The notes under the pieces were generated by a model. The model worked only from the letters and a program-made list of their open reading frames with translations. It made no database searches and was not told the origin of the DNA. A stretch of 29,485 nucleotides of DNA from Campylobacterota bacterium (GTDB lineage: Bacteria > Campylobacterota > Campylobacteria > Campylobacterales > Sulfurovaceae). Where the stretch lies: NCBI GenBank assembly GCA_034722955.1, contig JAYEOM010000134.1, forward strand, positions 1 through 29,485, read 5' to 3'. Shown in pieces: positions 1,255 through 27,438 of this stretch (position 1 is its first letter; every line of letters starts with the position of its first letter). The position numbers and the translations under genes were made by a program.

Positions 1255-1262
1255 TGTATTAC

Positions 1263-1368: not shown

Positions 1369-1881
1369 ACGGGAAGAAGTCGCTATAAAATATATGAACC
1401 GACATATCCGCATTTTGTCACTTGCACCATACTCCATTGGCTGCCGATATTTACAAGAAAAGAGAGTGTCGATATAGTCATACAGAGTTTAAAATTTCTA
1501 CAAAAACAAGACAACCTCAAACTACACGCTTTTGTCATATTGGAAAATCACCTGCATACGGTGTTGCGTAGTGATGATTTGCAAAAAAGTATGGAGTCGT
1601 TCAAAAAGTTTACAGCCAGAGAAATACTGCAGCTACTCAAAAGAGAGAATACTGTAACTATACTCGATCAGCTGGCTTTTTATAAAAAAGCCCATAGAAA
1701 AGAGAAGAGTTACCAGGTATGGGAAGAGGGGTATCAGCCAAAACTGATGCAGACAGAAGCTATACTGCAGAACAAGGTTAACTATATTCATCAAAATCCT
1801 GTCAAAAGAGGCTATGTCGATGAGACCGTGCAATGGAGGTATTCCAGTGCACGCGATTATGAGGGTATTGACGGGGCATAG
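1369..1881 (+). mobile_element. REP-associated tyrosine (Y1/HUH, IS200-like) transposase; start codon is ACG and the extreme C-terminus appears clipped
   Basis: The frame is open 57 codons upstream of the listed ORF: ACG-GRSRYKIYEPTYPHFVTCTILHWLPIFTR; HUH motif ENHLH, VWEEGY, catalytic YIHQNPVKRG, WRYSSA. Confidence 0.88.
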
Positions 1882-2031
1882 GGGTCAGGTGATGCTAATG
1901 CTACTATAAGTTATCTTCTGATATTCTCTGTAAAATAAAAGAATAAAGAAAAGGGTCAGATATCAAATCTTAAATGCTCTATATTACCAAATATACCCAT
2001 AAAAAGATAGATGAATTGGAGGAGTTGTAAA

Positions 2032-2127
2032 GTGAACATAGAAGCGATAGCACTTGCGGTAGCCTTAGATGTGGCACTTTTTTCTATTATTTATAGCACT
2101 TATGAGATTATGCAAGACCATAAATAA
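2032..2127 (+). CDS. 31-aa hydrophobic peptide (MNIEAIALAVALDVALFSIIYSTYEIMQDHK)
   Basis: GTG start with GGAGG upstream; one hydrophobic segment; starts 1 nt after the stop of an orphan ORF tail (...YITKYTHKKIDELEEL*). Confidence 0.5.
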   Translation: MNIEAIALAVALDVALFSIIYSTYEIMQDHK

Positions 2128-2175
2128 GAACCAAGATAAAAACCTGATGTCGTCTAAAAACAACAAATGCTAGAG

Positions 2176-2204
2176 TTGACTTTGTAACTAAAATATGATA
2201 CTAT
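2176..2204 (+). promoter_or_regulatory. sigma70 promoter of hicAB, likely leaderless transcript
   Basis: TTGACT-17 nt-TACTAT with extended TG; ATG 5 nt after the -10; no Shine-Dalgarno; imperfect palindrome GTAAC...GATAC overlaps the spacer. Confidence 0.65.
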
Positions 2205-2209
2205 AAAAA

Positions 2210-2464
2210 ATGAGTAAAAAAGAGAAGCTTTTAAGGCGATTTTTGGAATTACCTGCGAGAAAGGATTTAACTTTTCAAGAATTGGATCGCCTATTGAGTT
2301 CATGCGGTTACCGGAAAATCGAAGGTAGTGGCTCTGCTGTAAAGTTTTATCATCAGAAAAACGATAGTTTGATTAATCTGCACAAACCACACCCAGGAAA
2401 TATTTTAAAAGTCTACCTTGTCAAACAGATACAGATAAAACTAAAGGAGGTTTGTGATGGCTAA
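2210..2464 (+). CDS. hicA: HicA-family mRNA interferase toxin
   Basis: 84 aa, basic; G-S-G-S turn, LHKPHP motif and LKVYLVKQI tail; overlaps the downstream hicB. Confidence 0.9.
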   Translation: MSKKEKLLRRFLELPARKDLTFQELDRLLSSCGYRKIEGSGSAVKFYHQKNDSLINLHKPHPGNILKVYLVKQIQIKLKEVCDG

Positions 2465-2783
2465 TACACTAGAATATGGCGGCTATATCGGCTCTTTGGA
2501 ATATTCTCCCGAAGATAAGGTTTTTTATGGGAAGTTGGAGATGATCGATGACCTGGTAACATTTGAGGCTGATAATGCTTCGGAGTTGGAAGAAAATTTT
2601 CATACAGCCGTTAATGAGTATATTGATACTTGTAGAGAATTGGGACGCTCTCCTCAGAAGACATATAAGGGCATATTTAATGTGAGAGTTAATCCTGAAT
2701 TGGAAGAAAAGGTGTCAGGTGATCGTAATCGTATCGTAACCAAATCTTCTTTGCTATATTTAACTTGCCGGCAAAAAAAGTAG
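2457..2783 (+). CDS. hicB: HicB antitoxin, C-terminal RHH DNA-binding domain replaced by unrelated sequence after ~2702
   Basis: LEYGGYIGSLEYS...FYGKL...VTFEA...YIDTC...KTYKGIFNVRVNPEL; similarity stops after the RHH beta-strand, just before GGTGTCAGGT at 2711; RBS AAGGAGG. Confidence 0.85.
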   Translation: MANTLEYGGYIGSLEYSPEDKVFYGKLEMIDDLVTFEADNASELEENFHTAVNEYIDTCRELGRSPQKTYKGIFNVRVNPELEEKVSGDRNRIVTKSSLLYLTCRQKK

Positions 2784-2841
2784 GAGGCTAAGTGCATTGG
2801 CACTATCAGATTCACCTGCCGACTGGAACTCTTTGAGATAA

Positions 2842-3132
2842 GGCTACCCCAAGGAGATAAACACACAAATAGAAGCCACCAAGAGGGTAAGATTTGCAAA
2901 ATATAATTCGTAGGACTAGCCATAGCTAATTGGAGAATTATATTTTGTGAAGATTGCCCTCTTGGTGACTTCCCTACGGGCTTTATGAGGTTTCCCATAT
3001 ACGGCGTTAATCGTTTTTGCACCCCAAGGGCATTTCCTACGGGCAATTAGCTAAGGCTAGTACTTCAAACGATTGCCTTGTCTATGAAAAACCTCATAAA
3101 GCTATTTGTGTGTTTATCTCCTTGGGGTAGCC
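2842..3132. mobile_element. MITE/BIME-like composite: two inverted ~80-bp units, 31-bp perfect terminal inverted repeats, TAA target duplication
   Basis: GGCTACCCCAAGGAGATAAACACACAAATAG at 2842-2872 and its reverse complement at 3102-3132; TAA at 2839-2841 and 3133-3135. Confidence 0.85.
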
Positions 3133-3210
3133 TAATGAGAGTATAGGGGAAAAGTGCGAAATAAGGATGCCTGCCTTGCTCCGTCTGGTTTTAAATTTGT
3201 TCATTGGCTG

Positions 3211-3330
3211 TTATTTACTCTTTTGTACAAAGAAATAGATCAGTACCAGGAGACCAATGACGGGCACGAATGCGATTAGCATCAACAATCCTCTTTTTCC
3301 AATATCATGAAGCCTTCGCGCACCAAGGCT
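3211..3330 (-). pseudogene. C-terminal fragment of a DUF805 (YhaH-like) membrane protein
   Basis: SLGARRLHDIGKRGLLMLIAFVPVIGLLVLIYFFVQKSK*; RRLHD motif; in-frame stop 14 codons upstream and no start. Confidence 0.75.
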
Positions 3331-3473
3331 GTACTGAAAAATAAAGTGTTCTACAGGCGTATCTGACCACTACCATAGATCTTAAATTTATAAGTGGTAA
3401 AATTTCGGTGATGAAAATAAACTTTAAGAAAAAAATAGCCACAACACCAAACCCTAAAACAAGGAGCAACTAA

Positions 3474-3565
3474 ATGGCAAGAAAGACCAAGGCTATATAT
3501 GGCAGGTTTTCACCATATAGTGGACAGAGGAGTAGCAAGAGGCAATGTTTATAAGTGTGATGAGA
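3474..3565 (+). pseudogene. N-terminal fragment of a second RAYT/Y1 transposase, frameshifted
   Basis: RBS AAGGAG; ATG GCA AGA [extra A] AGA CCA AGG gives MAR-RPRLYMAGFHHIVDRGVARGNVYKCDE; the HHIVxRG motif is typical of Y1 transposase N-termini. Confidence 0.7.
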
Positions 3566-3594
3566 TCCAAAGTGGTCTGCCAAACACCATCACA

Positions 3595-3663
3595 TCATCT
3601 ACTCATCCTCTTCACAATCCCATTGACTATAGATTGTGCCAACCCCAATACCTTAGCAATCAT
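3595..3663 (-). pseudogene. C-terminal HTH fragment, probably from the same RAYT family, in inverted orientation
   Basis: MIAKVLGLAQSIVNGIVKRMSR* resembles a helix-turn-helix recognition segment. Confidence 0.5.
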
Positions 3664-3708
3664 ATAGTCTTCTCTTTAGGCTACCCTTAACCATATACTT
3701 TTATAACA

Positions 3709-3738
3709 TAAAACTACAGAGACGAGTGCCTATGTAGT
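3709..3738 (-). terminator. Intrinsic terminator after fusA
   Basis: Minus strand ACTACATAGGC-actc-GTCTCTGTAGT followed by a T run. Confidence 0.65.
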
Positions 3739-3759
3739 GTAGATAGGGTGGGTTAGATA

Positions 3760-5841
3760 TTAACCATTTCTCTTGACAATGATCTCTTTAGCAACATTTT
3801 GCGGAACTTCGTCATAGTGATCGAACTCCATCGCGTAAGTAGCACGACCTTGTGTCATAGATCTAAGATCTGTAGAGTAACCGAACATCTCGGAGAGAGG
3901 TACAAATGCATCTACTATCTTGTTTCCGGATCTGTCACCCATACCGCTGACTTGACCTCTTCTTTTGGAGATATCACCGATGACATCACCCATATAATCT
4001 TCAGGTACTTCAACTTCTACTTTCATCATAGGCTCTAGTATAACAGGATTAGCCTCTCTACATCCATCTCTGAATCCCATAGAACCAGCGAGTTTAAATG
4101 CCATCTCAGAGGAGTCAACATCGTGGAATGAACCATCATAAAGTGTAACTTTGACATCTTCGATAGGGTAGCCGGCTTGGATGCCTCTGCCCATCGCCTC
4201 TTTGATACCTTTATTGACAGCAGGGATGAACTCTTTTGGAATTACACCACCTTTGATAGAGTCGATAAACTCATATCCGTCACCTGGCTCTTGTGGCTCG
4301 ATCTTGAGGTATACATGACCGAACTGACCACGACCACCAGACTGCTTGGCATACTTGTACTCTTTGTCTACCGCTTTTCTGATCGTCTCACGGTAAGCAA
4401 CTTGCGGAGCACCTACTTCTGCTTCTACCTTGAACTCTCTCATCATTCTATCTACTAGGATCTCTAGGTGAAGTTCGCCCATTCCTGAGATGATAGTTTG
4501 ACCAGACTCCTCATCGCTAGATACTCTAAATGATGGATCTTCCTGAGCTAGTTTGCCTAGTGCAACACCCATCTTCTCTTGGTCAGCTTTTGTCTTTGGC
4601 TCAACTGCTACAGAGATAACCGGATCTGGGAACTCCATTCTTTCAAGTATAACTTTGTCTTTCTCGCCTGCAAGCGTATCACCGGTAAGTGTCGTCTTGA
4701 GACCAACAACTGCACCGATCTCACCAGCATAAAGTGCACCTACCTCTTCTCTCTTGATAGCATGCATCTTGAGAAGTCTACCGATACGCTCTTTTTTGCC
4801 CTTGGTTGTGTTGTATACATAAGAACCGGACTCCAGAACACCACGGTAAACACGGATAAATGTCAACTGACCGACAAATGGATCTGTCATGATCTTAAAT
4901 CCAAGAGCAGCAAACTCACCATCATCGGTAGACTCTACTGTAGTCTCGCTGCCATCTTCATACTCACCTCTGATCTCCTGAACCTCGGTAGGTGCAGGGA
5001 GATAAGAGATAACAGCATCGAGAAGAGTCTGAACACCTTTGTTTTTAAAGGCAGTACCACAAGTCATAGGGATCATAGTGATGGCAAGAGTAGCAGCTTT
5101 GATACCTGCTTTGATCTCAGCTTCAGTAAGCTCCTCACCCTCCATGAATTTCTCCATAAGAGTATCATCAGTTTCAGAGATAGCTTCGATCAACTTCTCT
5201 CTATATGCTTCAGATTTCTCAACCATATCTTCTGGGATATCTACTACTTCAAACTCTTGTCCCATTTTGCTCTGGTCGTCACCCCAAACAGTCGCTTTCA
5301 TAGTAACGAGATCGATAACACCTTGAAAATCCTCTTCGGCACCGATAGGGAGCTGAATAGGTACAGCATTTGATTTCAATCTATCATTGATCTGCCTCTC
5401 AACTTCATAGAAATCAGAACCTGTTCTATCCATCTTGTTTACAAATACCATTCTTGGAACACGATATTTATTGGCTTGTCTCCATACAGTTTCAGACTGT
5501 GGCTGAACACCACCAACTGAACAAAATACTGCTACTGCACCATCAAGAACTCTCATAGATCGCTCAACTTCGATCGTGAAGTCAACGTGACCTGGAGTAT
5601 CGATGATGTTGATCTGGTGACCTTCCCACTCACAAGTAGTCGCAGCAGAGGTAATAGTGATACCTCTCTCCTGCTCCTGCTCCATCCAGTCCATCGTTGC
5701 AGCACCATCATGTACTTCACCGATCTTATGTGATACACCAGTGTAGAAGAGGATTCTCTCAGTTGTTGTTGTCTTTCCTGCATCAATGTGAGCAGCGATA
5801 CCGATATTTCTTACTTTTTCAAGTGGATGTGTTCTTCCCAT
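3760..5841 (-). CDS. fusA: Elongation factor G
   Basis: [21 protein letters not shown] GTPase motifs; 693 aa; str operon context. Confidence 0.99.
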
Positions 5842-5852
5842 AACTTACTCCT

Positions 5853-6338
<486 letters not shown>

Positions 6339-6436
6339 TTATAACTATATTGATTTACTCAAGTCTTGTCCCCTAAGGATAACTGACAATACCTGCATAC
6401 TCTCGACTCTACCTACTCTTTATGAAATGCTAAAGG

Positions 6437-6808
6437 CTATTTAGGCTTTTTAGCACCATATTTAGAACGAGCAACTCTTCTGTTGGCCACACCTGATGCA
6501 TCCAATGCACCACGAACGATATGATACTTAACACCTGGCAAATCTTTTACTCTACCGCCTCTTACGAGTACAATCGAGTGCTCTTGAAGGTTGTGACCCT
6601 CTCCACCAATGTATGAGATAACTTCAAATCCACTTGTCAATCTAACTTTAGCAACTTTTCTCAAAGCTGAGTTAGGTTTTTTTGGTGTTGTAGTATATAC
6701 TCTTGTACATACTCCTCTTCTTTGTGGACACTTTACGAGTGCTGGTGATTTTGATTTTTTGATCACCTTCTTACGCTCTTTGCGAATCAACTGGTTAATG
6801 GTTGGCAA
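6437..6808 (-). CDS. rpsL: 30S ribosomal protein S12 (TTG start)
   Basis: [24 protein letters not shown]. Confidence 0.99.
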
Positions 6809-6964
6809 ATCGTCTTCCTTTAAATTTATTTTTCATACTTTGAGTATGAGAATTGAAATCTGGGTTCTTACACCACAAAAAAAGACTTTTCCTCTGCAAG
6901 TTTGGTTCAGATATAGAGAAAAATAGTACTTTCTTGAGATGTAAAGTCAGAAAAATGGAGGCAT

Positions 6965-6970
6965 ATTATA
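6965..6970 (-). promoter_or_regulatory. -10 element (TATAAT) of a probable rpsL-rpsG-fusA promoter
   Basis: Perfect TATAAT on the minus strand ~157 nt upstream of rpsL. Confidence 0.5.
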
Positions 6971-6995
6971 GTAGAATTGGCTTTATTTAAGCTTA

Positions 6996-7074
6996 GGCTA
7001 CCCCAAGGAGATAAACACCCAAATAGCTTTATGAGGTTTTTTATAAGAGAAGGCAATCGTTTATAGGGGCAGCC
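6996..7074. mobile_element. 79-bp MITE-like element with TTA target duplication between rpoC and rpsL
   Basis: TTA-GGCTACCCC...GGGGCAGCC-TTA; near-identical over ~65 nt to the reverse complement of 3055-3132. Confidence 0.85.
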
Positions 7075-7079
7075 TTATA

Positions 7080-7100
7080 CTCCTCTCCAAGAGAGAGGAG
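7080..7100 (-). terminator. Hairpin downstream of rpoC
   Basis: CTCCTCTC-caaga-GAGAGGAG 8-bp stem, 15 nt after the rpoC stop; no clear U-tract. Confidence 0.5.
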
Positions 7101-7115
7101 ATAGAAACGAACTTC

Positions 7116-15798
<8,683 letters not shown>

Positions 15799-15967: not shown

Positions 15968-16336
15968 TTACTTAAGTTCGCAAGAAGCTCCAGCCTCTTC
16001 AATCTGCTTTTTGAAATCTTCTGCTTCATCTTTAGAGACACCCTCTTTAAGTACTGATGGTACCTCCTCAACTGCTGTCTTAGCCTCTTTGAGACCAAGA
16101 CCAGTGATTGCTCTTACTACTTTGATCGCATTGATCTTCTTAGCACCTGCATCTGTCAATACTACTGTAAATTCAGTCTGCTCTTCAACGGCTTCTGCTG
16201 CTTCACCACCACCAGCTACTACTGTAGCTTGGGCAGATACGCCAAATTTTTCTTCAAATTCTTTTACAAGCTCAGATAGCTCAAGAACAGACATGTTAGA
16301 GATAAATTCAATTACATCTTCTTTAGTTGTTGCCAT
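15968..16336 (-). CDS. rplL: 50S ribosomal protein L7/L12
   Basis: [22 protein letters not shown]. Confidence 0.99.
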
Positions 16337-16433
16337 TTTATTTCCTTAATTATTTATATTTAAACAAGGGTACCCACAAGAGGTACCACTACTACACGCA
16401 TACCGCAGAGGTAATCCCTCATGGTTGCCCTAC

Positions 16434-16919: not shown

Positions 16920-16924
16920 ATTTT

Positions 16925-17025
16925 CTCCTTCCGACTTCTAACCGGGCTGCTGTTATATTATCATAACAACTATCGTCTATAGACGAATTTTGTTTAAGCT
17001 TTCGCCCCTATTATCTTTAGCCTAA
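16925..17025 (-). promoter_or_regulatory. Probable L10 leader (autoregulatory RNA)
   Basis: Structured rplA-rplJ intergenic (AAAGAT...GG...CTTAA) at the known position of L10 leaders; not model-verified. Confidence 0.45.
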
Positions 17026-17048
17026 GATTGATGAATCTTATGATTCTT

Positions 17049-17753
17049 CTATTTTATTTCAGCTAGCTCAGATAGATCGAGCGTTATAGATGGACTCATA
17101 GTTAGAGATATAGCTGCATTTGTTACATATCTACCTTTTGCAGATGCCGGTTTTGCCTTATTGATAGTCTCTATAAATTTGATAAAATTCTCTTTGATTT
17201 TTGAAATTTCAAAACTAGCTTTACCTATACCTGCGTGAATATTGCCTTTTTTATCTACTCTGAAGTTAACCTGTCCGCCTTTTGCATTCTCTATAGCTTT
17301 AGTAACATCCATTGTAACTGTACCTGTCTTAGGGTTTGGCATCAAACCTTTTGGTCCCAATATCCTAGCTACCTTGCCAAGTACACCCATCATATCAGGC
17401 GTAGAGATCACTGTATCAAAGTCAAGATTTCCTGCTTGGATCATTTCGATAAGCTCATCAGAACCTACTAGATCAGCACCGGCAGCTTTAGCCTCATCGA
17501 CCTTCTCTCCCTTTGCAAAAACTGCAACACGAACTTTTTTACCTGTTCCATTCGGAAGGACTACAGATCCTCTGACCATCTGATCTGCATGTCTTGGATC
17601 TACATTAAGATTTAGTGCCACTTCAACAGTCTCATCAAACTTTGCAGATTTGAGATCTGCTAGTGTAGTAAATGCTTCATCAACACTATATGATTTGCTG
17701 TTATCAATCTTTTCTAATAATTTTGCTGTTCTTTTAGTTATTTTTTTCGCCAT
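17049..17753 (-). CDS. rplA: 50S ribosomal protein L1
   Basis: [23 protein letters not shown]; true start ATG 17753 (MAKKITKR) after a GGAG RBS. Confidence 0.98.
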
Positions 17754-17809
17754 TGTTTTCTCCGCTAATTTGCTCCCACACTCTTTTGAATCTATGTGGT
17801 ATAAAAGAT

Positions 17810-18235
17810 TTAGTCCGTGATCTCTACACCCATACTTCGACATGAACCTGCAATAATTCTTGCTGCCATCTCCTTGTCATCAGTATTTAGATCTGAAATT
17901 TTCTGATCAATAATCTCATCAAGTTTAGCTTTGCTGATAGAGCCTACTTTAGTAGTGATAGGGTTATCTGTACCTTTTTTGATACCTGCTGCTTTCATGA
18001 TCAAGTCACTTGCCGGTGGTTGCTTTGTTTCAAAAGTAAAACTTCTGTCAGTGTATACTGTCACAATTACAGGGATCTTGAACCCCATCTTATCTTTTGT
18101 CGTCTCGTTAAATGCTTTACAAAATTCCATGATGTTTACACCACGCTGTCCCAATGCAGGGCCAACCGGAGGTGATGGATTTGCAGATCCGGCAGGGATC
18201 ATCATTTTGAATTTATCAGCGATTTTTTTTGCCAT
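17810..18235 (-). CDS. rplK: 50S ribosomal protein L11
   Basis: [26 protein letters not shown]. Confidence 0.99.
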
Positions 18236-18262
18236 CTTATTTCCTTTGTTTGATTTGTTGCG

Positions 18263-18793
18263 TTAGATAATCTTCTCTACTTGAGTGTAGAGTATCTCTA
18301 CTGGTGTATTACGACCAAAGATAGAGACATTTAGCTTGAGTTTCCCATGATCTAAGTCATACTCTTCAACCATACCTGTGAAGTTGGCAAATGGTCCATC
18401 AACTATACGAACCATCTCTCCATTCTCGAAGTCAACCTTTGGACGAGGAGCAGCTTTTCTCTCCATCTTTTCAAGGATCACTTTGATGTCAGCTTCAGTT
18501 AAAGCTGTAGGTGTTTTCTGTTCACCGATAAAGCGTGAGACTCTCGGCAGACTCTGGATCTTATGCCAAAGATCTGTATCCAATGCAATAGAAGCAAAAG
18601 CATAACCTGGATAGAGAGATCGTTCTGTGATCTTCTTCTCACCATTTTTTACCTCTATCACCTCTTCTGTAGGAACGACTATTCTATCAATCTTCTCTTC
18701 GATACCATAATCGATCGCAAGTTGCTCTATCGCTCTTTTGACCGACTGTTCACTGCCTGCATAAGTTTGGATTGCATACCATTGATAGGTCAT
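18263..18793 (-). CDS. nusG: Transcription factor NusG
   Basis: WYAIQTYAGSE, LYPGY, KOW motif GPFANFTG, IFGRNTPVE. Confidence 0.99.
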   Translation of the reverse strand: MTYQWYAIQTYAGSEQSVKRAIEQLAIDYGIEEKIDRIVVPTEEVIEVKNGEKKITERSLYPGYAFASIALDTDLWHKIQSLPRVSRFIGEQKTPTALTEADIKVILEKMERKAAPRPKVDFENGEMVRIVDGPFANFTGMVEEYDLDHGKLKLNVSIFGRNTPVEILYTQVEKII

Positions 18794-18801
18794 TATTTAT
18801 C

Positions 18802-18981
18802 CTATAAAAATAGTGAGATGGTGGATGACATAAAGAGATCAACCAGTGCTAAAAATATTGATATAACAGTCACTACGAGGATAACTGCCAAAAATGCTTG
18901 TCTTACTTGTACTTTAGTCGGAAATATAACTTTATGAATCTCTTCTCTAGCATGTGCTATAAATATTGAAAGTTTTCCCAT
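18802..18981 (-). CDS. secE: Preprotein translocase SecE (59 aa, not in the ORF track)
   Basis: MGKLSIFIAHAREEIHKVIFPTKVQVRQAFLAVILVVTVISIFLALVDLFMSSTISLFL*; lies between tRNA-Trp and nusG. Confidence 0.95.
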   Translation of the reverse strand: MGKLSIFIAHAREEIHKVIFPTKVQVRQAFLAVILVVTVISIFLALVDLFMSSTISLFL

Positions 18982-18999
18982 TGTTGTTTACCTTAATTG

Positions 19000-19075
19000 T
19001 GGCAGGCCAAGAGGGACTCGAACCCCCGGCACCTGGTTTTGGAGACCAGTGCTCTACCAACTGAGCTATTGGCCT
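19000..19075 (-). tRNA. tRNA-Trp(CCA)
   Basis: 76-nt cloverleaf, anticodon CCA, TTCGA T-loop, CCA end. Confidence 0.97.
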
Positions 19076-19139
19076 AAATATTATTTAGGTTGTTATTTGA
19101 GAAGTATCTCAAATAACGGTATCATCATAGAGGTGAAGC

Positions 19140-19292
19140 TTACAGTTTCATCTCTTTGTGAGCAGTATGAACTTTACACCATTTACAATACTTCTTTAGT
19201 GTAAGTTTACCTGTTGTTGTCTTCTTATTTTTTGTTGTGTGATAGTTGCGTCTAGTGCACTGTTCACATCCCAAATGTATAGTTTCTCTCAT
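19140..19292 (-). CDS. rpmG: 50S ribosomal protein L33 (Zn-binding form, 50 aa)
   Basis: MRETIHLGCEQCTRRNYHTTKNKK...KKYCKWCKVHTAHKEMKL*. Confidence 0.96.
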   Translation of the reverse strand: MRETIHLGCEQCTRRNYHTTKNKKTTTGKLTLKKYCKWCKVHTAHKEMKL

Positions 19293-19348
19293 AGTTTTCC
19301 TTAGTTTCGCGATAGATTGCCAGAGCAGAAGCTCTTAGCAATTTACAA

Positions 19349-20557
19349 TTATGCGATTACCTTACTAACAACACCGGCACCAACAGTTCTACCACCTTCA
19401 CGGATAGCAAATCTAGTACCCTCTTCAAGTGCAACTGGTGCGATAAGCTCTACATCAATCTTGACATTATCGCCTGGCATAACCATCTCAGTACCCTCTT
19501 GGAGTTGAACTGAACCTGTTACATCTGTTGTTCTTACATAAAACTGTGGTCTATAGTTGTTGAAGAATGGAGTGTGTCTACCACCCTCCTCTTTAGTCAA
19601 TACATAAACTTCAGCTTCAAACTTAGTGTGTGGCGTGATAGAGCCTGGCTTACAAAGAACCATACCTCTCTGTACAGCCTCTTTGTCGATACCACGGATA
19701 AGAACACCACAGTTGTCGCCAGCTTGACCACAATCCATCTCTTTACGGAACATCTCAACACCAGTTACTGTAGTAGTCTGAGTATCTTTGATACCTACGA
19801 TTTCAACAGTTTCACCTACACATACCGTACCTCTGTCTATCTTGCCGGTTACAACTGTACCACGACCCTGTATAGAGAAGATATCTTCGATAGGCATCAA
19901 GAACTCTTGATCAGTCTCTCTGACAGGCTCAGGGATATACTCATCTACTTGACTCATGAGTTCAATAATTTTTTCTGACCACTCACCAAGAGTACCAGAT
20001 TTGGCCTCTTCAAGTGCTTGGAATGCAGATCCGGCTATGATAGGAGTATCATCACCTGGGAACTCATACTCAGAGAGAAGCTCTCTTACTTCCATCTCTA
20101 CAAGCTCTAGCATCTCCTCTTTATCTTCTTCATCAAGCTGATCTTCTTTGTTTAAGAATACAACGATATATGGTACACCAACCTGGCGAGAAAGAAGGAT
20201 ATGCTCTCTAGTTTGTGCCATTGGTCCATCAGTAGCAGCGATAACAAGAATAGCACCATCCATTTGAGCAGCACCGGTAATCATGTTCTTAACATAGTCA
20301 GCGTGACCTGGACAATCTACATGAGCATAGTGACGACCTTCAGTTTCATACTCTACGTGTGATGTAGCGATTGTGATCCCTCTTTCTCTCTCTTCAGGAG
20401 CGTTATCAATCGCATCATAATCCATAAGAGCTGTATCATTTTTCGTTGCAAGTACAGCAGTGATCGCTGCTGTTAGCGTAGTTTTACCGTGGTCAACATG
20501 TCCGATTGTACCAATGTTAACATGTGGTTTGGTTCGTTCAAATTTTTCTTTAGCCAT
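19349..20557 (-). CDS. tuf: Elongation factor Tu
   Basis: [25 protein letters not shown]. Confidence 0.99.
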
Positions 20558-20721
20558 TTGTGTTCTCCTAGCTTTATTTTAAATTATGGCTGATATTATA
20601 TCAGCTTTTTCTCAAGAGTTCTTGAGAGCATCTTCAGAATACTCTTTTTATGTACCCATTACCCTCGATATGGACAGAACTACTACCATATAAATATGTA
20701 GCACTTTTGTCCATATTTGAG

Positions 20722-20796
20722 TGGAGCCCAGAAGCGGAATTGAACCGCCGACCTCTTCCTTACCAAGGAAGTGCTCTGCCTCTGAGCTATCTGGGC
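20722..20796 (-). tRNA. tRNA-Thr(GGT)
   Basis: Cloverleaf, anticodon loop TTGGTAA, CCA end. Confidence 0.95.
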
Positions 20797-20900
20797 ATTA
20801 TCTATTTTATTATATTATTAATTTCAGGTTTGGAAAGCTTTTGAATGTGAAGTTTTTATCTTAAAGTATTAATGATAATTCACACAGCTCCCAGTATGTA

Positions 20901-20977
<77 letters not shown>

Positions 20978-21000
20978 ATCTTTATATTTATGATCTGACA

Positions 21001-21085
<85 letters not shown>

Positions 21086-21131
21086 TTAATGCTTTGATCG
21101 TATTACTGGTCAAACACTGATAATTATTTTA

Positions 21132-21208
21132 TGGAGCTGGTGAAGGGACTCGAACCCCCGACCTGCTGATTACAAATCAGCTGCTCTAGCCAGCTGAGCT
21201 ACACCAGC
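21132..21208 (-). tRNA. tRNA-Thr(TGT)
   Basis: Cloverleaf, anticodon loop TTTGTAA, CCA end. Confidence 0.96.
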
Positions 21209-21248
21209 ACCATCACATTTGAAGTCATTCAACTAAAAATGGAGTGCA

Positions 21249-21277
21249 ATTATAGGCAAAAAATTATAAAATGTCAA
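21249..21277 (-). promoter_or_regulatory. Consensus sigma70 promoter of the tRNA-tuf operon
   Basis: TTGACA-17 nt-TATAAT on the minus strand. Confidence 0.9.
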
Positions 21278-21492
21278 GGGTTATTGAAAATTTTTTGAAA
21301 ATTTTATATTTTTCTCTCTTTATAAATCGATGTATTATATTTGTGTGCCAAAAACATTCCACTATTTATTGCTAACTCTTCTACTTTAGCTATATGTTAG
21401 TCAATATTTTATAGAATATTCCTAATATCTCTTGTATAAGGTGGTTTCATTATGTTATATTTTTTCAAATCTCTCTTTTTTGCACTACTCAT

Positions 21493-21765
21493 TGTCCTGA
21501 CTTTGGGATTCCTGATGTGAGCAATATCCACGATAGATCATATGGTCAATATATCAATGATATGGAGGAGAGTCTACGCAACACTATCACACAGTTTGAG
21601 CCTAGATTGAGTGGAGTAGAGGTGAAGCATATCGAAGAGGATGGAGAGAAAACAGTCATGCACTTCAGGATAGAGGCAGAGCTGACTGAGCATAGTGAAA
21701 CTCCTGTTTTGTTCGAGACAGTCATCAATCCAAATGGCAAGATAGTTATCCAGAAGAGCTTATAG
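21493..21765 (+). pseudogene. tssE: T6SS baseplate TssE (gp25-like), 5'-truncated
   Basis: CPDFGIPDV...ITQFEPRLSGVEV motifs; N-terminal part missing, with no in-frame start before the stop at 21412; abuts tssF. Confidence 0.8.
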
Positions 21766-23505
21766 ATGAGTAACAAAGCATTCAAATACTATTTTCAAGA
21801 GGAGTTGAGCAAACTCCACAAGCTAGCAGGAGAGTTTAGCAGAGAGCATCCTGCTATCGCTCCACTCCTAGACGCTACTACAGCAGACCCCGATGCACAG
21901 CGACTTCTGGAGGGTGTGGCGTTTCTCACTGGTCTCCTCCAGCAGAAGCTAGACAAGGAGTTCCCCGAAGTCACCTATACCCTCTGCAACACACTCTTCC
22001 CTCACTATCTACGACCTATACCAGCACTCTCTATAGTAGAATTCACACCCAAGCCAAGTATGCGAGAGATGATAGATATCCCTGCAGGCACACAGCTCAA
22101 TGCCACACCTATAGATGGAGCTTCTTGTAGCTTCTCGACGAGTACTCCTCTAGAGATCTACCCTCTCCAGATCACACAGTCACAGCATCTGCTAGAGAGC
22201 TCCAAGAGGGGCAAACTAGAGCTGGATATAGAGATGCTCAACACCTCCCTCTCTACGCTCAAGATGCAGAAGCTCAGCTTCTATCTCAACGACAACTACA
22301 GCAACGCCTCCAATCTCTTCATGCTGCTAGAGCACTACTTAGAGTATATATCTATTCTACTGCCTGACAAGCAGAGCTTTAGAGTTGATAGAGAGTTACT
22401 CTCTTGTGATGGCTTCGATGAGGAGTGTTCGCTCTTTCCCTATCCATCGCAATCTTTTAGTGGATATAGAGTCCTCCAAGAGTACTTTGTCTTGCCTCAG
22501 AAGTTTCTCTTTTTTACTCTAAATGGACTTGAGAGACTCTACCAAAAGAGTAGTGCCAAGGAGTTCAAGATACTCTTTCACTTCAAGCCTACACCACTAG
22601 AGCTGATGCCACTCTCTCATAATGCTATCAAACTCTTCTGCTCGCCCGTGAGCAATATCTTTGATAGTCAAGCAGAGCCGATACTCCTCACCCACACAAA
22701 AGAGATGATGCTTATACGCCCCACACTCCGCTATAGCAAACAGCACAAAATCTATGATGTACAGCGAGTCTCTAGCTACACCCAGGGAGAGCATCAACCC
22801 AAGAGCTACTCTCCTTTTGAGTCTTTTGAGACTAGGCAAGAGGAGAAAAACATCTACCAAGTACATCGCAAACGCTCCATCGTCGATAACCAAGAGGAGA
22901 TCTATCTCCAGCTCCACTACAAAGAGCATCTCCCGCAAAAAAAAGAGGTACTCTCTATAGATATAGCTTGCACCAACGGTAGCTTGCCTGAGAGGCTCAA
23001 ACTCGGAGAGATATCACTCCATAGCGATAACTCCCCTGAACTCACTTCGTTCAAAAACATCATACCCTGCACGATGCAGATAGATGCAAATATTGATGAG
23101 CATACGCTATGGCAACTCATCTCTCATCTGAGTATCAACCTCATGACTCTAGCTGATATGGAGGCGTTTAAGCAGATGCTCACTCTCTATATGTTTCCAC
23201 ACAGTAGAGACAAGAGCAGAGTCGCAAGAAACAAAAAAAAGCTAGATGCTATAGGGAGTTTCTCCATAGAGAGTGTAGATAGAGTGAGTCGTGGCTATCT
23301 CCTCAAGGGGCATAGAGTTTTGATAGATATGAGACAAGACTACTTCGCTTCACTCGGTGATCTCTATCTATTTTGTACGATTATATTACGCTTTTTGGCT
23401 AGTTATACCTCTATCAATAGTTTTGTAGCTCTGGAGGTTAGAGAAGAGATTACAGGGGAGGTTTTGAGATGGAAGCCACTATTGGGCGACAAGAGATTGA
23501 TCTAA
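21766..23505 (+). CDS. tssF: T6SS baseplate TssF
   Basis: YFQEEL...DPDAQRLLEGVAFLT...FPHYLRPIP, GYRVLQEYFVLPQKFLFF, WQLISHLSIN, YTSINSF; 579 aa. Confidence 0.95.
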   Translation: MSNKAFKYYFQEELSKLHKLAGEFSREHPAIAPLLDATTADPDAQRLLEGVAFLTGLLQQKLDKEFPEVTYTLCNTLFPHYLRPIPALSIVEFTPKPSMREMIDIPAGTQLNATPIDGASCSFSTSTPLEIYPLQITQSQHLLESSKRGKLELDIEMLNTSLSTLKMQKLSFYLNDNYSNASNLFMLLEHYLEYISILLPDKQSFRVDRELLSCDGFDEECSLFPYPSQSFSGYRVLQEYFVLPQKFLFFTLNGLERLYQKSSAKEFKILFHFKPTPLELMPLSHNAIKLFCSPVSNIFDSQAEPILLTHTKEMMLIRPTLRYSKQHKIYDVQRVSSYTQGEHQPKSYSPFESFETRQEEKNIYQVHRKRSIVDNQEEIYLQLHYKEHLPQKKEVLSIDIACTNGSLPERLKLGEISLHSDNSPELTSFKNIIPCTMQIDANIDEHTLWQLISHLSINLMTLADMEAFKQMLTLYMFPHSRDKSRVARNKKKLDAIGSFSIESVDRVSRGYLLKGHRVLIDMRQDYFASLGDLYLFCTIILRFLASYTSINSFVALEVREEITGEVLRWKPLLGDKRLI

Positions 23506-24509
23506 AAGAGCAACTCCTCACACAGAGTTCTGAGTTTTCATTTGTGCAGGCATTGCGTCTCTTGCTACTACAGTATGACGATAAAGAGCAAGCCCTACGA
23601 GATGCTATCCGTGTACGCCCTCGCCTCTCTCTGGATTTTCCACATAGTGATATCATAGATATTGTGCAGAGGGGTGATATCTATCAACTGACTGTGACTT
23701 TCTTGGGACTCTACGGGGAGTCTTCGCCTCTGCCTACTTTTTACACAGAGACACTGCTCGAAGAGGAGGCTCGCGACACATCTGTCATGCGAGACTTTAT
23801 AGATATCTTCAATGGTCCTATCTATGAGAGCTACTTTAAGGTATGGCTCAAAAATAGATTGGGTGTTCGTTTTGACGAGTTTGGCGACCAATCAATCATA
23901 GAACTTTTTCATGTTTTTTCTGGTATGCCGACGAGAGAGCTGAGAGACAAACACAAAGTCTCATATGCACTACTCAAATATGCAGGACTCACACTCCACA
24001 ACTCCCACTCGGCTCTAGGACTCTCTATACTCATCAGAGATGTTGTCTCTTGGGAACAGGTGCATATAGTCCAGTGTGTAGAGCAGATGGTAGCTATACC
24101 CCAAGAGCAGTACTGCTTGCTCGGAGAGAGTAACTCTATACTTGATGAGACACTGCATCTAGGAGAGAAGATCAGAGACAGGATGGGGAAGTTTCGTATA
24201 GTGATAGAGGAGTTGGATGCCGATAGATTCAACCATCTCCTCCCAGGGGGTGAGCTCTTTGATACTCTGGTTCAAGCTATTGTCTTATACCTCAACGAGC
24301 CACTCGATTGGGATATCCAACTCATCTTGGCTAGAGATGCCTACCACACAGTGACACTGGGTAAAAAACCATTCGCTAGCTTGGGATACAACACTTGGCT
24401 AGGCGTAGAGGACAATAGAGAGGAGTACTCTATCATCTTGCATAGGGATTACTATAGAGGGGTGTATGATGATAAGGCTACACCAAATAGCGATTTGCCA
24501 TCAATATGA
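23469..24509 (+). CDS. tssG: T6SS baseplate TssG
   Basis: FSFVQALRLL, LSLDFPHSDI, TFLGLYGESSPLPTFYTE, LGYNTWLG; overlaps the tssF end. Confidence 0.93.
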   Translation: MEATIGRQEIDLKEQLLTQSSEFSFVQALRLLLLQYDDKEQALRDAIRVRPRLSLDFPHSDIIDIVQRGDIYQLTVTFLGLYGESSPLPTFYTETLLEEEARDTSVMRDFIDIFNGPIYESYFKVWLKNRLGVRFDEFGDQSIIELFHVFSGMPTRELRDKHKVSYALLKYAGLTLHNSHSALGLSILIRDVVSWEQVHIVQCVEQMVAIPQEQYCLLGESNSILDETLHLGEKIRDRMGKFRIVIEELDADRFNHLLPGGELFDTLVQAIVLYLNEPLDWDIQLILARDAYHTVTLGKKPFASLGYNTWLGVEDNREEYSIILHRDYYRGVYDDKATPNSDLPSI

Positions 24510-24545
24510 GGATAGTTTCGCTACAATAAAACCAAAGGAGAAGCC

Positions 24546-25094
24546 ATGGACGCTATAAAATATGATAATTTTCAGTACTTTACTTATGATGACTATGTGC
24601 AGTGGGAGGAGTCATGGGAGTTGATAGATGGGGTTGCCTATGCGATGTCTCCTGCTCCCTATCCCAAACACCAAAAAATTGTCTTTAGGGTAGGTAAAGA
24701 GCTAGACAAGAACCTCTCCTGTGCCACGAGTGAGTGCGAAGTCTATATCGCTCCTGTGGATTGGAAAGTGTCAGAAAATACAGTCGTGCAACCTGATGTA
24801 GCGATATTTTGCGAAGATACGCAGAGGCAATATTTTTCTAAAACTCCACTACTAGTCGTAGAGATACTCTCTCGCTCTACAGCACTCAAAGATGTCACAA
24901 GCAAATACAAACTCTATGAAAAAGAGGAAGTACCCTACTACATCATCATCGAGCCAAATAGTGAGACCAGTGATATCTTCCAACTCATAGATGGAGAGTA
25001 TATACTCATACAAAAAGCTACGAGAGAGGATAGCTATGCGTTTGAACTCTCCGATGACTGCAAGTCGGCTATAGACTTTTCGACGGTTTTTTAG
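24546..25094 (+). CDS. Uma2-family PD-(D/E)XK putative endonuclease
   Basis: WELIDGVAYAMSPAP...HQ, VVQPDV, PLLVVEILS...K..LY; RBS AAGGAG. Confidence 0.9.
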   Translation: MDAIKYDNFQYFTYDDYVQWEESWELIDGVAYAMSPAPYPKHQKIVFRVGKELDKNLSCATSECEVYIAPVDWKVSENTVVQPDVAIFCEDTQRQYFSKTPLLVVEILSRSTALKDVTSKYKLYEKEEVPYYIIIEPNSETSDIFQLIDGEYILIQKATREDSYAFELSDDCKSAIDFSTVF

Positions 25095-25174
25095 GGTTTA
25101 GTATCTCTTTTTTCTCCATAATAAGCCTTTTCTTTTTTAATCATCTCTTATTTAATTATATTTTTTATTACATC

Positions 25175-25351
25175 TTGCAAAAGCAAAAAGTTCCCATCAC
25201 TGTAAACTATGAGACCCTTGACCCTGAAGTGGCATTAAATGCAATCAAAGACAAGGAGCTCTCTATGCCTATTAGGTATATCCTCAAAATCAACTCCGCC
25301 TTTGGTGGACAAAACTCTGCATTGGTGGTAAAGAGATATAGTAGAAAAAAT
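25175..25351 (+). pseudogene. C-terminal fragment of a beta-ketoacyl-ACP synthase (FabF/FabB-like)
   Basis: VPITVNYETLDPE...LKINSAFGGQNSALVVKRY matches the KAS C-terminal signature (NSFGFGGxN-like); the rest of the gene is absent. Confidence 0.8.
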
Positions 25352-26068
25352 ATGAATAGAAAAGTAGTAATAACTGGTGCAAGCTCTGAGATGGGTCAAG
25401 CCATTATCAAAAAGGTAGCCAAAGCAGATGACCAACTCATTGTGCAAGGGTATCAAAATAGTGAGAATTTACGCTCACTTAAAAGCACTTATCCCCATTG
25501 CGAACTGCTCTCACTTGATTTTACAAAAAGTGAAGAGCTAGAGGAGTTTTGTAGTTATCTTGATGATGTCGATATCTTTATCAACCTATCAGCAGTAACG
25601 GTTACAGATATATTACCTGCTATCAAAGAGAGTTCTATAGATACGATGCTTAGTGTCAACATCCAAGCACTTATCCTCATAACCCAAAGTCTCATCCCCT
25701 CGATGGTAGCCAAAAGGGCAGGTATCATAGTCAACCTCTCCTCCATCGCAGCCTCTCGGGGCAATAGGGGGCAGTCGGTCTATGCAGGAACCAAAGGATT
25801 TGTAGAGTCCTTCTCTAGGTCAGTTGCTAGTGAGTATGGAGGCAAAGGGGTACGAATCAACTGCGTAGCCCCTGGTCCTATAGATGCAGGAAGCCTCAAA
25901 CCCCTCTACGCTCAAGCACCCAAAGAGCTTTTGCAGAGTATCGTATCACCTAAAATAGGGAGCGTTGAAGATGTCGCCAATATGATAGCGTTTTTATGTG
26001 GCAAAGAGTCAGAGTTTATCAATGGGCAAGTGTTGCATATAGATGGAGGGTTTTGTAAAGGTGTTTGA
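25352..26068 (+). CDS. FabG-like SDR (3-oxoacyl-ACP reductase)
   Basis: MNRKVVITGASSEMG Rossmann motif, NLSS, YAGTK catalytic motif, NCVAPG, GQVLHIDGG. Confidence 0.88.
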   Translation: MNRKVVITGASSEMGQAIIKKVAKADDQLIVQGYQNSENLRSLKSTYPHCELLSLDFTKSEELEEFCSYLDDVDIFINLSAVTVTDILPAIKESSIDTMLSVNIQALILITQSLIPSMVAKRAGIIVNLSSIAASRGNRGQSVYAGTKGFVESFSRSVASEYGGKGVRINCVAPGPIDAGSLKPLYAQAPKELLQSIVSPKIGSVEDVANMIAFLCGKESEFINGQVLHIDGGFCKGV

Positions 26069-26069
26069 T

Positions 26070-26633
26070 ATGTATGAGTCATTTAGAGAGTTATCACTGA
26101 GCCGTCATAGCACACGGGAGTTTAGCGAAACAAAAGTACCACAAGATAGGGTCGAGAAGATTTTGGAGTTAGCTGCCACTTCTCCCTATGCATCGGTCAA
26201 AAGCAACTGGGATATCAAGGTGATAGATGACCCTCAAATTATCAAAGAGATAGCAAGCAGGGTCAAAGAGTATACAGATGAACTCACACCCAAAATACGA
26301 GATGATTTTCGAGATGGGTTTATGGAGTATAGCAAAAGTTTCGTAGCTTTTGAAGATGCTCCGCTTATACTTATCCCCACTTTTAAAGTAAACTACTCAC
26401 TCTCACTGATGGTAGAGGATGAAGATATCAAGAACTGGGAAAGAGAGAGCTATGTCAAATCTATCTCCTGTCTGAGTATGATCATCCACCAAACTGCCCA
26501 CTCTTTGGGGTTGGGGAGTTGCTATATGACAGGTCCTGTGATTGCACAAGAGGCAATTAAACAAATTATCAAAGTAAAACCCAGACACGATATTGCAGCG
26601 ATTATACCTATTGGGTTCAAAAAGGAGAAATAG
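26070..26633 (+). CDS. Nitroreductase-family flavoprotein
   Basis: SRHSTREFS FMN motif, ATSP, AHSLGLGSCYMTG, IPIG; likely start ATG 26070. Confidence 0.88.
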   Translation: MYESFRELSLSRHSTREFSETKVPQDRVEKILELAATSPYASVKSNWDIKVIDDPQIIKEIASRVKEYTDELTPKIRDDFRDGFMEYSKSFVAFEDAPLILIPTFKVNYSLSLMVEDEDIKNWERESYVKSISCLSMIIHQTAHSLGLGSCYMTGPVIAQEAIKQIIKVKPRHDIAAIIPIGFKKEK

Positions 26634-26635
26634 AT

Positions 26636-27016
26636 ATGAGTGTATTAGAGAGATTACAAGAGTTACTGTTGCCTGTTTTTGGTTTGGATAGTATCGAAGA
26701 GGTACAACCTCAGTTTGCCCTAGTCAATGATTTGGGAGCAGATAGTATAGACTTTGTCGAGATAGTCTATCTCATAGAGAAGAACTTCAGCGTTTCACTC
26801 AAAACCGATGAGATGATACTCGGTGGTGTAGTCATCAGCTCTGATACGCTCTTTGAGAATGGGCTTTTGAGTGCCGAAGGTGTGGAGCATCTCAAAAGTG
26901 CATTTCCCGATAGAGCCGATGAGTTCCAAGCAGATACCAGCAAAGTAAATCTCTTTGCCAAGCTCACAATAGCTGATTTAGCACAAGTGATAGAGTATAA
27001 ACAAAATGAAATCTAA
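26636..27016 (+). CDS. Extended acyl carrier protein (126 aa)
   Basis: DLGADSIDFVEI phosphopantetheine site; ~45-aa insert before the terminal TIADL helix. Confidence 0.85.
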   Translation: MSVLERLQELLLPVFGLDSIEEVQPQFALVNDLGADSIDFVEIVYLIEKNFSVSLKTDEMILGGVVISSDTLFENGLLSAEGVEHLKSAFPDRADEFQADTSKVNLFAKLTIADLAQVIEYKQNEI

Positions 27017-27416
27017 AGTATTTGAAAACAAAACGGTGTTAGTCTCAGGTGGTACAGGATATATCGGCTCAGCTATCTGTAGAGAGTTCTATGAGCAAGG
27101 AGCGACGCTATACTTCACCTATCATAAGAACAGCGAAAAAGCAGATGAGCTCATCGCACAGATGCCCGATGCCAAGGCTCTACACTTAGACCTACGAGAT
27201 ACAGCCTCTATCAATACCACGATAGAGAAGCTCTACAAAGAGGGTGTCTCCATAGATATCTTGGTCAACAATGCGGCGATGAGTCAAGTGATGCCACTAC
27301 CGATGCTCGATGAGGAGGATGTCGATATGATACTCGATATCAACATCAAGAGTGTTATTTTCCTCACCAAAGCGGTGATGCGATTAAGGGGTCAGGTAAC
27401 AACTACAACTAATTAG
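27006..27416 (+). pseudogene. Second FabG-like SDR, truncated before the catalytic YxxxK
   Basis: VSGGTGYIG, DILVNNAA; similarity ends at ...LTKAVMR (~27383), where the palindrome begins. Confidence 0.85.
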
Positions 27417-27438
27417 TTGTAGTTGTTACCTGACCCCT
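27387..27438. repeat. 52-bp perfect spacerless palindrome (REP doublet-like)
   Basis: AGGGGTCAGGTAACAACTACAACTAA|TTAGTTGTAGTTGTTACCTGACCCCT. Confidence 0.95.

Follow-up and report, generated by a model that had tools for sequence, protein, structure and literature searches.

What joins a set of unrelated broken genes to copies of one short motif? The question is raised by the 29,485-nt contig JAYEOM010000134.1 of a Campylobacterota bacterium (the window; contig C134 of genome G000, an assembly of 2.5 Mb in 140 contigs), in which a housekeeping core running from fusA to tuf, with tRNAs, has a patch of gene fragments on either side. A preliminary description proposed that the motif is related to the repetitive extragenic palindrome (REP) and that a REP-associated tyrosine transposase (RAYT) acting in trans uses it as a directional cut and join site to clip and shuffle genes. 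By its sequence, the motif is the terminal inverted repeat of TIRtrons, the elements of the Y1/HUH transposase TIRYT (subclass 2.1), and not a REP. It is likely, in our judgement, that a TIRYT made elsewhere binds the repeat, makes a nick about 7 bases beyond its edge and links that one end to a different 3′ end. In the following, G numbers denote genomes, C numbers contigs of G000, L numbers loci and X1–X4 sequencing runs.

Identity of the repeat

All eight 10-nt copies of the motif (at 325, 1881, 1952, 2711, 3370, 3572, 27388 and 27428–27437) could be read where the preliminary description had placed them, as could the pairs of hexamers that follow three of them, the third pair over 11 of 12 letters. 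The exact 10-mer occurs 57 times in G000 against 1.3–2.6 expected; five degenerate forms, with 4–9 copies each, are not above chance (2.4–5.3 expected). Allowing up to two mismatches gives 20 matches in the window compared to 12.9 ± 3.4 by chance, a number reached by 3 of 100 shuffles. Twelve of the 20 lie between 3760 and 27300, the region of the core, and the copy at 3572, with four mismatches, is outside this list. Since the degenerate 10-mers are not above chance, they were tested by the sequence that follows them, using eight 23-nt consensus motifs built from G000 itself; each true copy continues into subfamily-specific inner sequence. At up to four mismatches these motifs find 141 ends in G000 and none in the reversed genome. 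The earlier claim that the core is free of copies fails for the 10-mer and stands for the 23-nt element, of which the core has none. The copies at 325, 1952 and 2711 match the ends of transposase loci in other genomes at 21–23 of 26 bases, and it is this inner sequence, and not the 10-mer, that supports the degenerate copies as putative ends. The copy at 3370 is the weakest of the eight: no close relative was found among the loci searched (best 18 of 26 bases), and its support is a loose end at 3338 in runs X1 and X3. The copies at 27388 and 27428–27437 are the two arms of one perfect palindrome of 50–52 nt, which the preliminary description had not set apart, and a ninth end, clipped and absent from that description, lies at 3407. 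An Rfam search returned tRNAs and nothing else.

TIRtrons have been described as a Y1/HUH gene, with a C-terminal helix-turn-helix (HTH), placed between inverted repeats that fit GGGGWSAS; the repeats are also scattered singly, as dimers and in clusters, and are frequent in Epsilonproteobacteria (Di Nocera 2013, PMC3733652). TIRYT has been equated with TnpAY1 subclass 2.1, which is RAYT Group 1 and the second largest Y1 transposase group (14.9% of species), featuring NH[YF]H, W[EQ] and YxxNP motifs and a length near 238 aa (Quentin 2018, PMC6006769). On contigs C67 and C130 of G000, a Y1 transposase gene lies between inverted repeats. The TIRYT of C67 is intact, with 258 aa and the motifs NHYH, WQ and YIEHNP, and residues H59, H61, Y118, N122 and P123 are invariant across 47 TIRYT sequences. 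The C-terminal HTH is recognized as HTH_23 in 16 of these 47 members (best E 1.6e-7) and is weak in the C67 protein by itself (E 0.18); a predicted model of TIRYT has three helices at 217–256. Searching PDB sequences with the single TIRYT protein gave no match, and a profile reached TnpA-REP 4ER8 with an E of 0.032.

Relatives of TIRYT were found at 123 loci, 80 of which were kept. Of the loci with enough flank, 47 of 73 have the GGGTCAGG core on the left side and 41 of 75 on the right; both repeat ends are present in 33 of the 80, with 16–22 of 22 bases identical. Several of the remaining loci have other repeat cores. The repeats of L083, L086, L089, L090, L109, L114–L127, L134 and L140 lack the GGGG core, being of the CACCCCTG or AGTACCG type, and keep the inner TTGAA-like motif with the offset of the duplications described below unchanged. 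The window's GGGGTCAG agrees with the consensus GGGG[AT][CG]A[CG], for which 85 copies are present in G000 compared to 25–43 expected, and the repeats of G000 occur singly and as dimers, including at least 14 head-to-head pairs. This genome has 24 TIRYT profile matches (E ≤ 1e-12), of which one, on C67, is whole; others run off contig ends. All 12 relatives with a motif excess of at least 5 carry TIRYT, as do 24 of 48 others, kin not being independent in this count. Copy number is patchy among relatives, from 0 to 81, and the complete genome G032 has few true ends. The REP identity of the element is not upheld, as the single ends at 1881, 2711, 3370 and 3572 fold no better than shuffles (z −1.3 to +0.1) and the repeats bracket TIRYT genes.

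RAYT1 (1393–1874, plus strand; NF047646, 99.4 bits) has the motifs NHLH, YIHQNP and YSS, homologs of ~170 aa, and a hairpin of its own at 1261–1293. Subclass 2.6 is characterized by NH[LIV]H, YIH[QN]NP and SS, about 179 aa and atypical flanking hairpins (PMC6006769). Having subclass 2.6 motifs and its own hairpin, RAYT1 is to be regarded as a victim and not as the enzyme. With no intact cognate enzyme in the window, the enzyme must act in trans, as had been suggested.

Break points of the truncated genes

Comparison with intact homologs bears out the truncation of four genes, each shortly 5′ of a same-strand copy of the repeat. Counted from the first G, the breaks lie at −6 for RAYT1, −8 for hicB, −7 for RAYT2 and −7 for SDR2, and the bases between each break and the repeat match neither gene. 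RAYT1 has lost its last 8 codons, in that seven of nine homologs end 8 aa later (one of the others is longer and one has an early stop); its first codon is ACG where ATG is expected, and the runs differ by T>C at 1395. A 6-nt carried flank (1875–1880) and 29 nt of a family-B left end follow (1875–1909, plus strand), and then foreign DNA. This 1881 end is identical to other G000 ends at 26 of 26 bases.

The hicB gene (2457–2702, plus strand) is reduced to its first 82 codons, matching positions 1–33 of 51 of Pfam HicB. The C-terminal DNA-binding part is gone, a shortfall of ~28–34 aa against homologs, which continue. Next to it are an 8-nt flank (2703–2710) and a TIRtron end beginning GGTGTCAGGT (2703–2745 together, plus strand; 21 of 26 bases to L131, L135 and L138). 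The clipped hicB frame (2457–2783) is open for 108 aa and adjoins a whole hicA. The product would keep the toxin-binding half and lose the DNA-binding half, and may still neutralise the toxin.

RAYT2 is itself the start of a TIRYT gene, namely its first 30 codons with a frameshift near the start. It follows a clipped left end whose first 7 nt are gone (3407–3564 together, plus strand; 87–88% to the TIRYT left ends and genes of G001 and G020, 97% to C77). Beyond the break, 3565–3665 (plus strand) holds a 7-nt flank (3565–3571), a diverged right end that belongs to another TIRtron (3572–3594) and, reversed, what is left of the C-terminal HTH of that element's TIRYT gene (3595–3665). The stretch 3589–3663 is 92% identical to G141 and G072, whose right TIRYT repeat sits at the same offset as the 3572 copy.

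SDR2 (27006–27380, plus strand) comprises the first 125 codons of a 244-aa gene and lacks the last 118 aa; homology to the ortholog in G004 stops at 27380. A 7-nt flank, the perfect palindrome of two family-A ends, which represents a miniature element, and a right flank occupy 27381–27444. The same miniature recurs on C3, C20, C30, C62 and C132. A clean insertion was considered for the C30 copy and rejected, the left gene lacking ~32 aa and the right side being unrelated. Between the palindrome and the end of the HepT gene is a 31-nt internal scrap of TIRYT (27445–27475, plus strand), 94% identical to C104:381-351, which lies inside a TIRYT gene.

Neither the rest of SDR2 nor the radical-SAM gene that follows it was found in G000, the best matches being paralogs of 23–32% identity, and the missing half of hicB was not found there either. 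These events are therefore deletions and not insertions, in agreement with the proposed removal of neighbouring DNA. The breaks read G|G, G|G, G|A and G|C, with CT at none of the four. The clipped genes end in G at 1874, 2702, 3564 and 27380, too few positions to mean much. The nearest relative, at 74% identity, is too distant for a base-level comparison with an empty site.

On the inner side of the repeats, two orphan C-terminal fragments proposed earlier are equally real. The tail ending in KKIDELEEL starts ~35 nt into the 1952 element; it is the end of an 87-aa protein present in G027, with homologs also in G070 and G095. The 1952 element itself is a left end of another TIRtron subfamily (1952–1986, plus strand, ~35 nt; 23 of 26 bases to L101), joined to this tail of the membrane-protein gene (1987–2030). 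The DUF805 fragment (3214–3337, minus strand; Pfam positions 63–102 of 111, homolog in G078) starts 33–39 nt into the 3370 element, the join being ~33 nt inside it; this element is a probable diverged TIRtron end of GTGGTC type, 33 nt long (3338–3370, minus strand). Thus an element of ~40 nt, from −7 to about +30 or +36, marks directional break points, as the preliminary description had it.

Short duplications at a fixed offset

Many ends are preceded by a short tandem duplication, or stutter, which starts just outside the repeat and runs into it. The 122 ends of G000 come down to 110 unique ends once 12 are set aside that are gapped, duplicate or too close to a contig end. In an anchored test, in which the match must cover −5 to −1 and extend over at least 6 nt, duplications are found at 37 of the 110, compared to 6–9 at four other offsets and a mean of 5.2 (maximum 12) in shuffles. 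The control was the unrelated AGGCTACCCCAAGG repeat family (2838–3135 and 6986–7077 in the window; ~111 unique ends in G000), whose ends usually lie directly after whole genes, without stutter; 5 of 111 of them have such a duplication. Unanchored runs start at −8, −7, −6 and −5 in 7, 15, 8 and 5 cases, respectively, and never at −4 among 98 G000 ends; among 131 ends of other genomes the corresponding numbers are 11, 20, 21 and 7, again with none at −4. Other positions have at most 6 starts. For the TIRYT loci alone, duplications are present at 28 of 93 ends and 19 of 49 loci, versus 19 of 488 random places. The first copy of the duplication stops after the first or second G of the repeat in 29 of 73 cases; smaller groups stop around +7, a tail extends as far as +35, and the period is 7–10 nt in 36 of the 73. 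Longer duplications of 39–43 nt are found on C22 and C25 and in G006.

When repeat variants without the GGGG core are aligned on the shared inner motif (44 ends), the same offset is seen in 13 of 15 runs. In another phylum (seed record Thermodesulfobacteriota) and on two plasmids, a repeat pair is present in 21 of 31 loci and 12 run starts among 41 ends fall between −9 and −5, where the peak is wider and a little displaced. The flank also appears to travel with the end: of 147 pairs of near-identical ends at different loci, 74 have 4–7 flank bases in common and one has more than 7, the sharing between sister ends reaching −6 and falling to background from −7 or −8. The cuts implied by the 73 duplications have no fixed dinucleotide and only a purine bias, C and T being rare. 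A fold-back origin of the flank was rejected (4 of 112 cases versus 2.7 expected).

Alleles in the sequencing runs

Four runs of one study contain the stretch, as contigs, X4 (share 0.25) without the junction region; the alleles reported are those among the matches listed, and further alleles may exist. In X1, X2 and X3, a contig follows hicB to 2702, continues with 121 extra bases and rejoins the window at 2705 (depth 36, 115 and 124). This sister allele of hicB rejoins 6 nt outside the 2711 end, both alleles share 2705–2710, and 2702 is precisely the point at which a unitig branches. In the nearest intact hicB (93% identical) the stop lies 93 nt further on, so the extra bases, compared by length alone, fit the rest of the gene. 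A metagenome search for the long allele gave intact homologs, none with a 2711-type end downstream, and any end in 3 of 80 loci. X1 also has a duplication allele at the 1881 end, from 1911 back to 1878; in X2 there is weak support for a deletion of 1356 nt that stops at the 2711 end. The junctions at 1952, 1987, 3338, 3564–3572 and 3665 are bridged, that at 3564–3572 by contigs of three runs; those of RAYT1 and SDR2 are covered, with 30 and 17 bases on the repeat side, and fall below the 31-base bridging rule.

Truncation across the genome

To compare repeat ends with control-repeat ends, 123 open frames at 78 of the 110 unique repeat ends and 90 frames at 65 of the 83 control-repeat ends that have open frames were searched against Pfam. 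At the repeat ends, 4 of 10 hits are domains cut at the junction (SDR2, Cas2, PIN and ABC-2); by the same rule the control repeat has 0 of 18, one doubtful. The enrichment of truncations near the motif is present per Pfam hit (p = 0.010; 0.029 without SDR2) and is lost when counted per end or by coding score, as given below. Genome-wide, truncation at the ends is modestly enriched, most ends abutting non-coding DNA or unrecognised scrap. An NCBIfam search of 65 repeat-side frames added one cut reverse transcriptase gene, which has no control and is outside the statistics. At L054:91-231 (C104) the Cas2 gene is cut at half length, and at L055 (C112) the reverse transcriptase is cut at the repeat end.

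Proposed mechanism

In cleavage by a Y1 enzyme the tyrosine stays attached to the 5′ end and a 3′ end is released (PMC3333891, PMC8266576), and nick, extension and rejoining have been proposed by Ton-Hoang for the growth of bacterial interspersed mosaic elements (BIME) (PMC3333891). For TIRYT, we propose a related route. The HTH would bind the unfolded, double-stranded repeat and set the cut by distance, since the single ends are unfolded and the implied cuts show a purine bias only. The Y1 tyrosine would cut the strand that reads GGGGTCAG inward and stay on the repeat side, since the duplications span −7 to +k and leave out the outer flank. Were the freed 3′ end extended by a few bases and resealed, −7 to +k would be duplicated, giving the stutter; if it were chewed back, or if a second cut fell upstream, an adjacent deletion would result. 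A second cut downstream would remove the repeat and, after an earlier duplication of 39–43 nt, would leave an end of 30–36 nt on a foreign tail, as may have happened at 1881, 1952 and 3370. The end clipped at 3407 would fit the reciprocal product of such a downstream cut. A single cut site could in this way explain the deletions, the duplications and the shared flanks, nick-extend-reseal and the joining of one end into another being indistinguishable in these data. Gene clipping would then be the by-product of a busy selfish element and not a host system.

A more specific form of this proposal is offered tentatively. TIRYT may be a ruler-type HUH enzyme, with the HTH on a duplex 25-nt site and a nick ~7 bases off in any sequence. 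The ends would be mini rolling-circle origins, aborted rounds producing stutters and one-ended rounds producing circles that take up parts of adjacent genes and insert them elsewhere.

Several observations weigh against cutting by TIRYT outside the repeat. The sole whole TIRYT in the assembly has a repeat subtype unlike the ends of the window, and the cut strand and polarity are read from footprints, so that their assignment should be taken as provisional. The Pfam test loses its significance when the count is made per end (4 of 110 versus 0 of 93, p = 0.13); most frames have no Pfam hit, and 18 of the 83 control ends are not in the test. A coding-score test of the flanks did not favour repeat ends (14 of 128 versus 22 of 111 control ends), the 'coding' flanks of the control repeat being whole gene ends. 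For Cas2 the break appears to be at −2 or even closer to the repeat, and not at −7, and the truncations of a fabF-like gene (25175) and of tssE (21517) have no clear repeat alongside. For 75 of 122 ends, a contig end is no more than 500 nt away. All runs come from one study, probably the source of the assembly. The 121 extra bases of the long hicB allele are known by length alone, the short allele has two bases (2703–2704) explained by neither side, and the depth on the island is several times single-copy, so the long allele may be another strain or copy. The deletion in X2, joining 1350 to 2707, is seen in one run, with a 27-nt side and 4 nt of microhomology.

Alternative explanations

Whole TIRtrons or miniatures could instead transpose by both ends, with a variable terminus of 5–7 nt or with insertion into their own ends, and the deletions could arise later through recombination between copies or host hairpin removal. 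The miniature is found at at least six loci with partly shared flanks, some joints show microhomology, and adjacent deletion with recombination often explains missing target duplications of insertion sequences (PMC11708052). However, two miniatures compared with homologs, at SDR2 and on C30, are not clean insertions, a stutter period of 7–10 nt is too short for a second element, the single ends are unfolded and the offset survives a change of repeat core; we regard two-ended transposition as unlikely. Assembly artefacts, that is, chimeras and stutters formed at short repeats in a metagenome bin, would account for the many ends near contig ends and for the SDR2 and RAYT1 junctions that are short of the bridging rule. 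They would join inside the repeat, not 6–8 nt outside it, while five junctions are bridged in independently assembled run contigs, a unitig branches at 2702 and 19 of 49 loci, drawn from separate assemblies, again show the −7 offset, which makes this explanation very improbable.

A domesticated system, clipping and shuffling genes to build mosaic islands useful to the host, was the strong form of the preliminary description. Fragments of many unrelated accessory genes do abut ends, a pilJ-domain gene lies between ends in two different contexts, and a subclass 2.1 enzyme was once proposed as a diversifier of prochlorosin genes (10.1101/2020.03.09.984088), a proposal for which its authors later withdrew strong support. 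Yet every product examined is a broken gene, which speaks against capture into useful mosaics, and no class of target gene is conserved; many victims are TIRYT or RAYT genes themselves, as the single whole copy among 24 profile matches illustrates, and copy number varies from 0 to 81 among relatives. No fusion of use to the host came to light, so there is no support for a host shuffling system, which we hold to be quite improbable. Still less credit, and the least of all, is given to the view that RAYT1 or another RAYT of REP type makes the cuts, with a hairpin and a CT dinucleotide as guides. RAYT1 does pass the REP-transposase cut-off, and cleavage by REP enzymes occurs on the 5′ as well as the 3′ side of the element (PMC8266576). 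Against this, RAYT1 has its own hairpin family while the repeats bracket TIRYT genes, CT is absent from the four breaks, and 11 RAYT1-homolog loci scanned gave one unrelated-looking GTGGTC match and no end of this family. A nick by TIRYT outside the repeat remains the reading that we prefer.

Other features of the window

Next to the left contig end, a decayed TIRtron end reads inward leftward (303–325, minus strand; 21 of 26 bases to the TIRYT ends of G021 and G035), and the pilJ-domain gene (335–1315) adjoins its outer side. This gene is also present on C108, 99.8% identical, with different repeat junctions on both sides, and the C108 gene is either a second copy or a sister strain. On C108 the place of the 325 end is taken by an end of another subtype, with a stutter track of 55 nt that comprises about eight units. 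The hairpin upstream of RAYT1 (1261–1293, plus strand; z −3.5) is likely its REP-like end, is unrelated to the GGGGTCAGGT repeat and resembles hairpins that flank RAYT1 homologs. It is related to a hairpin at 190–220, both being of RAYT1 type; the two are very deep in the runs and therefore belong to a repeat family in the community.

On the other side of the core, 21517–24509 is an isolated piece of a type VI secretion system baseplate by a tRNA cluster, with tssF and tssG whole and tssE lacking its start; a possible decayed end is present near tssE (~21491–21506, minus strand). The last ~56 codons of a FabF-like gene (25175–25350; 400 aa in G004) open a clipped fatty-acid or polyketide-like cluster of SDR, nitroreductase, carrier protein and SDR2. 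Beside the palindrome, a whole HepT/MNT toxin-antitoxin pair (27481–28120) is followed by an AAA ATPase running off the contig.

Significance and comparison with known systems

The TIRtron family has been named before, and adjacent deletion is ordinary for mobile elements. We found no prior description of the fixed offset, carried flank, stutter or sister allele in the literature searched, subscription journals being mostly outside that search. In the portions covered here, PMC3733652, PMC6006769, PMC5581495 and 10.1101/2024.07.17.603846 do not contain the cut offset, the carried flank, the stutter or adjacent deletions; the available text of PMC3733652 has neither 'duplication' nor 'truncated', and a TIRYT cut site is given neither there nor in the corresponding part of PMC6006769. 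Within the literature searched, the name TIRYT occurs in two papers. The footprint would be a first clue to how the TIRtron family works, and it makes this transposase class directly testable: for subclass 2.1 it predicts which strand is cut, where the cut falls (−7 ± 1), that no sequence rule applies and what products arise. If TIRYT is of ruler type, it would be new among Y1 transposases, would clip and fuse genes widely in Campylobacterota and Desulfobacterota and could serve as a site-directed strand-joining tool of 258 aa. HUH enzymes would then have a third mode of cut choice, in which the distance from a duplex site bound by protein sets the cut, alongside guide pairing and fixed origins, and a single cause would account for the gene scrap near TIRtron repeats.

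The system as read here resembles E. coli TnpA-REP, with its REP and BIME sequences, in its Y1 chemistry, in cutting on either side of the element, in strand transfer, in a model of tandem growth by nick, extension and rejoining and in acting in trans on many non-coding copies (PMC3333891, PMC8266576). The REPs of E. coli form hairpins with a GTAG foot, and their cleavage, at CT or CA, takes place in single-stranded DNA (PMC3333891, PMC8266576). In contrast, TIRtron ends are unfolded and have no fixed cut dinucleotide, the offset being apparently set by distance. Membership in the REP/REPtron class (RAYT groups 2 and 3) was considered and rejected, the hairpin being absent and CT or CA cleavage not being seen at the implied sites. 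An integron- or shufflon-like cassette system was likewise rejected: the joined pieces are gene fragments, and the SDR2 and hicB halves were not found in the genome.

One-ended transposition is the known behaviour of IS91. The ends described here resemble the IS200/IS605 (IS608) and IS91-type elements in the lack of target duplication, in a strand-specific cut just outside the end and in one-ended events that delete or carry neighbours. Choice of the cut site by IS608 follows a guide rule (PMC3333891, PMC8266576). The TIRtron ends differ from both types in having an identical inverted repeat at both ends, with no subterminal hairpin or guide, and in a cut that would leave 5–8 variable bases on the end.

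A DDE transposase cuts flush with its repeat, whereas here the anchor lies ~7 nt beyond the repeat and has short duplications to match. DDE insertion sequences share the deletions that start from an element end and remove neighbour genes (PMC11708052). Compared to the TIRtron/TIRYT system as described, some of the variants found here differ in being without the GGGG core; the Y1/HUH gene, the inverted repeats, the C-terminal HTH and the occurrence of repeats singly, as dimers and in clusters are the same.

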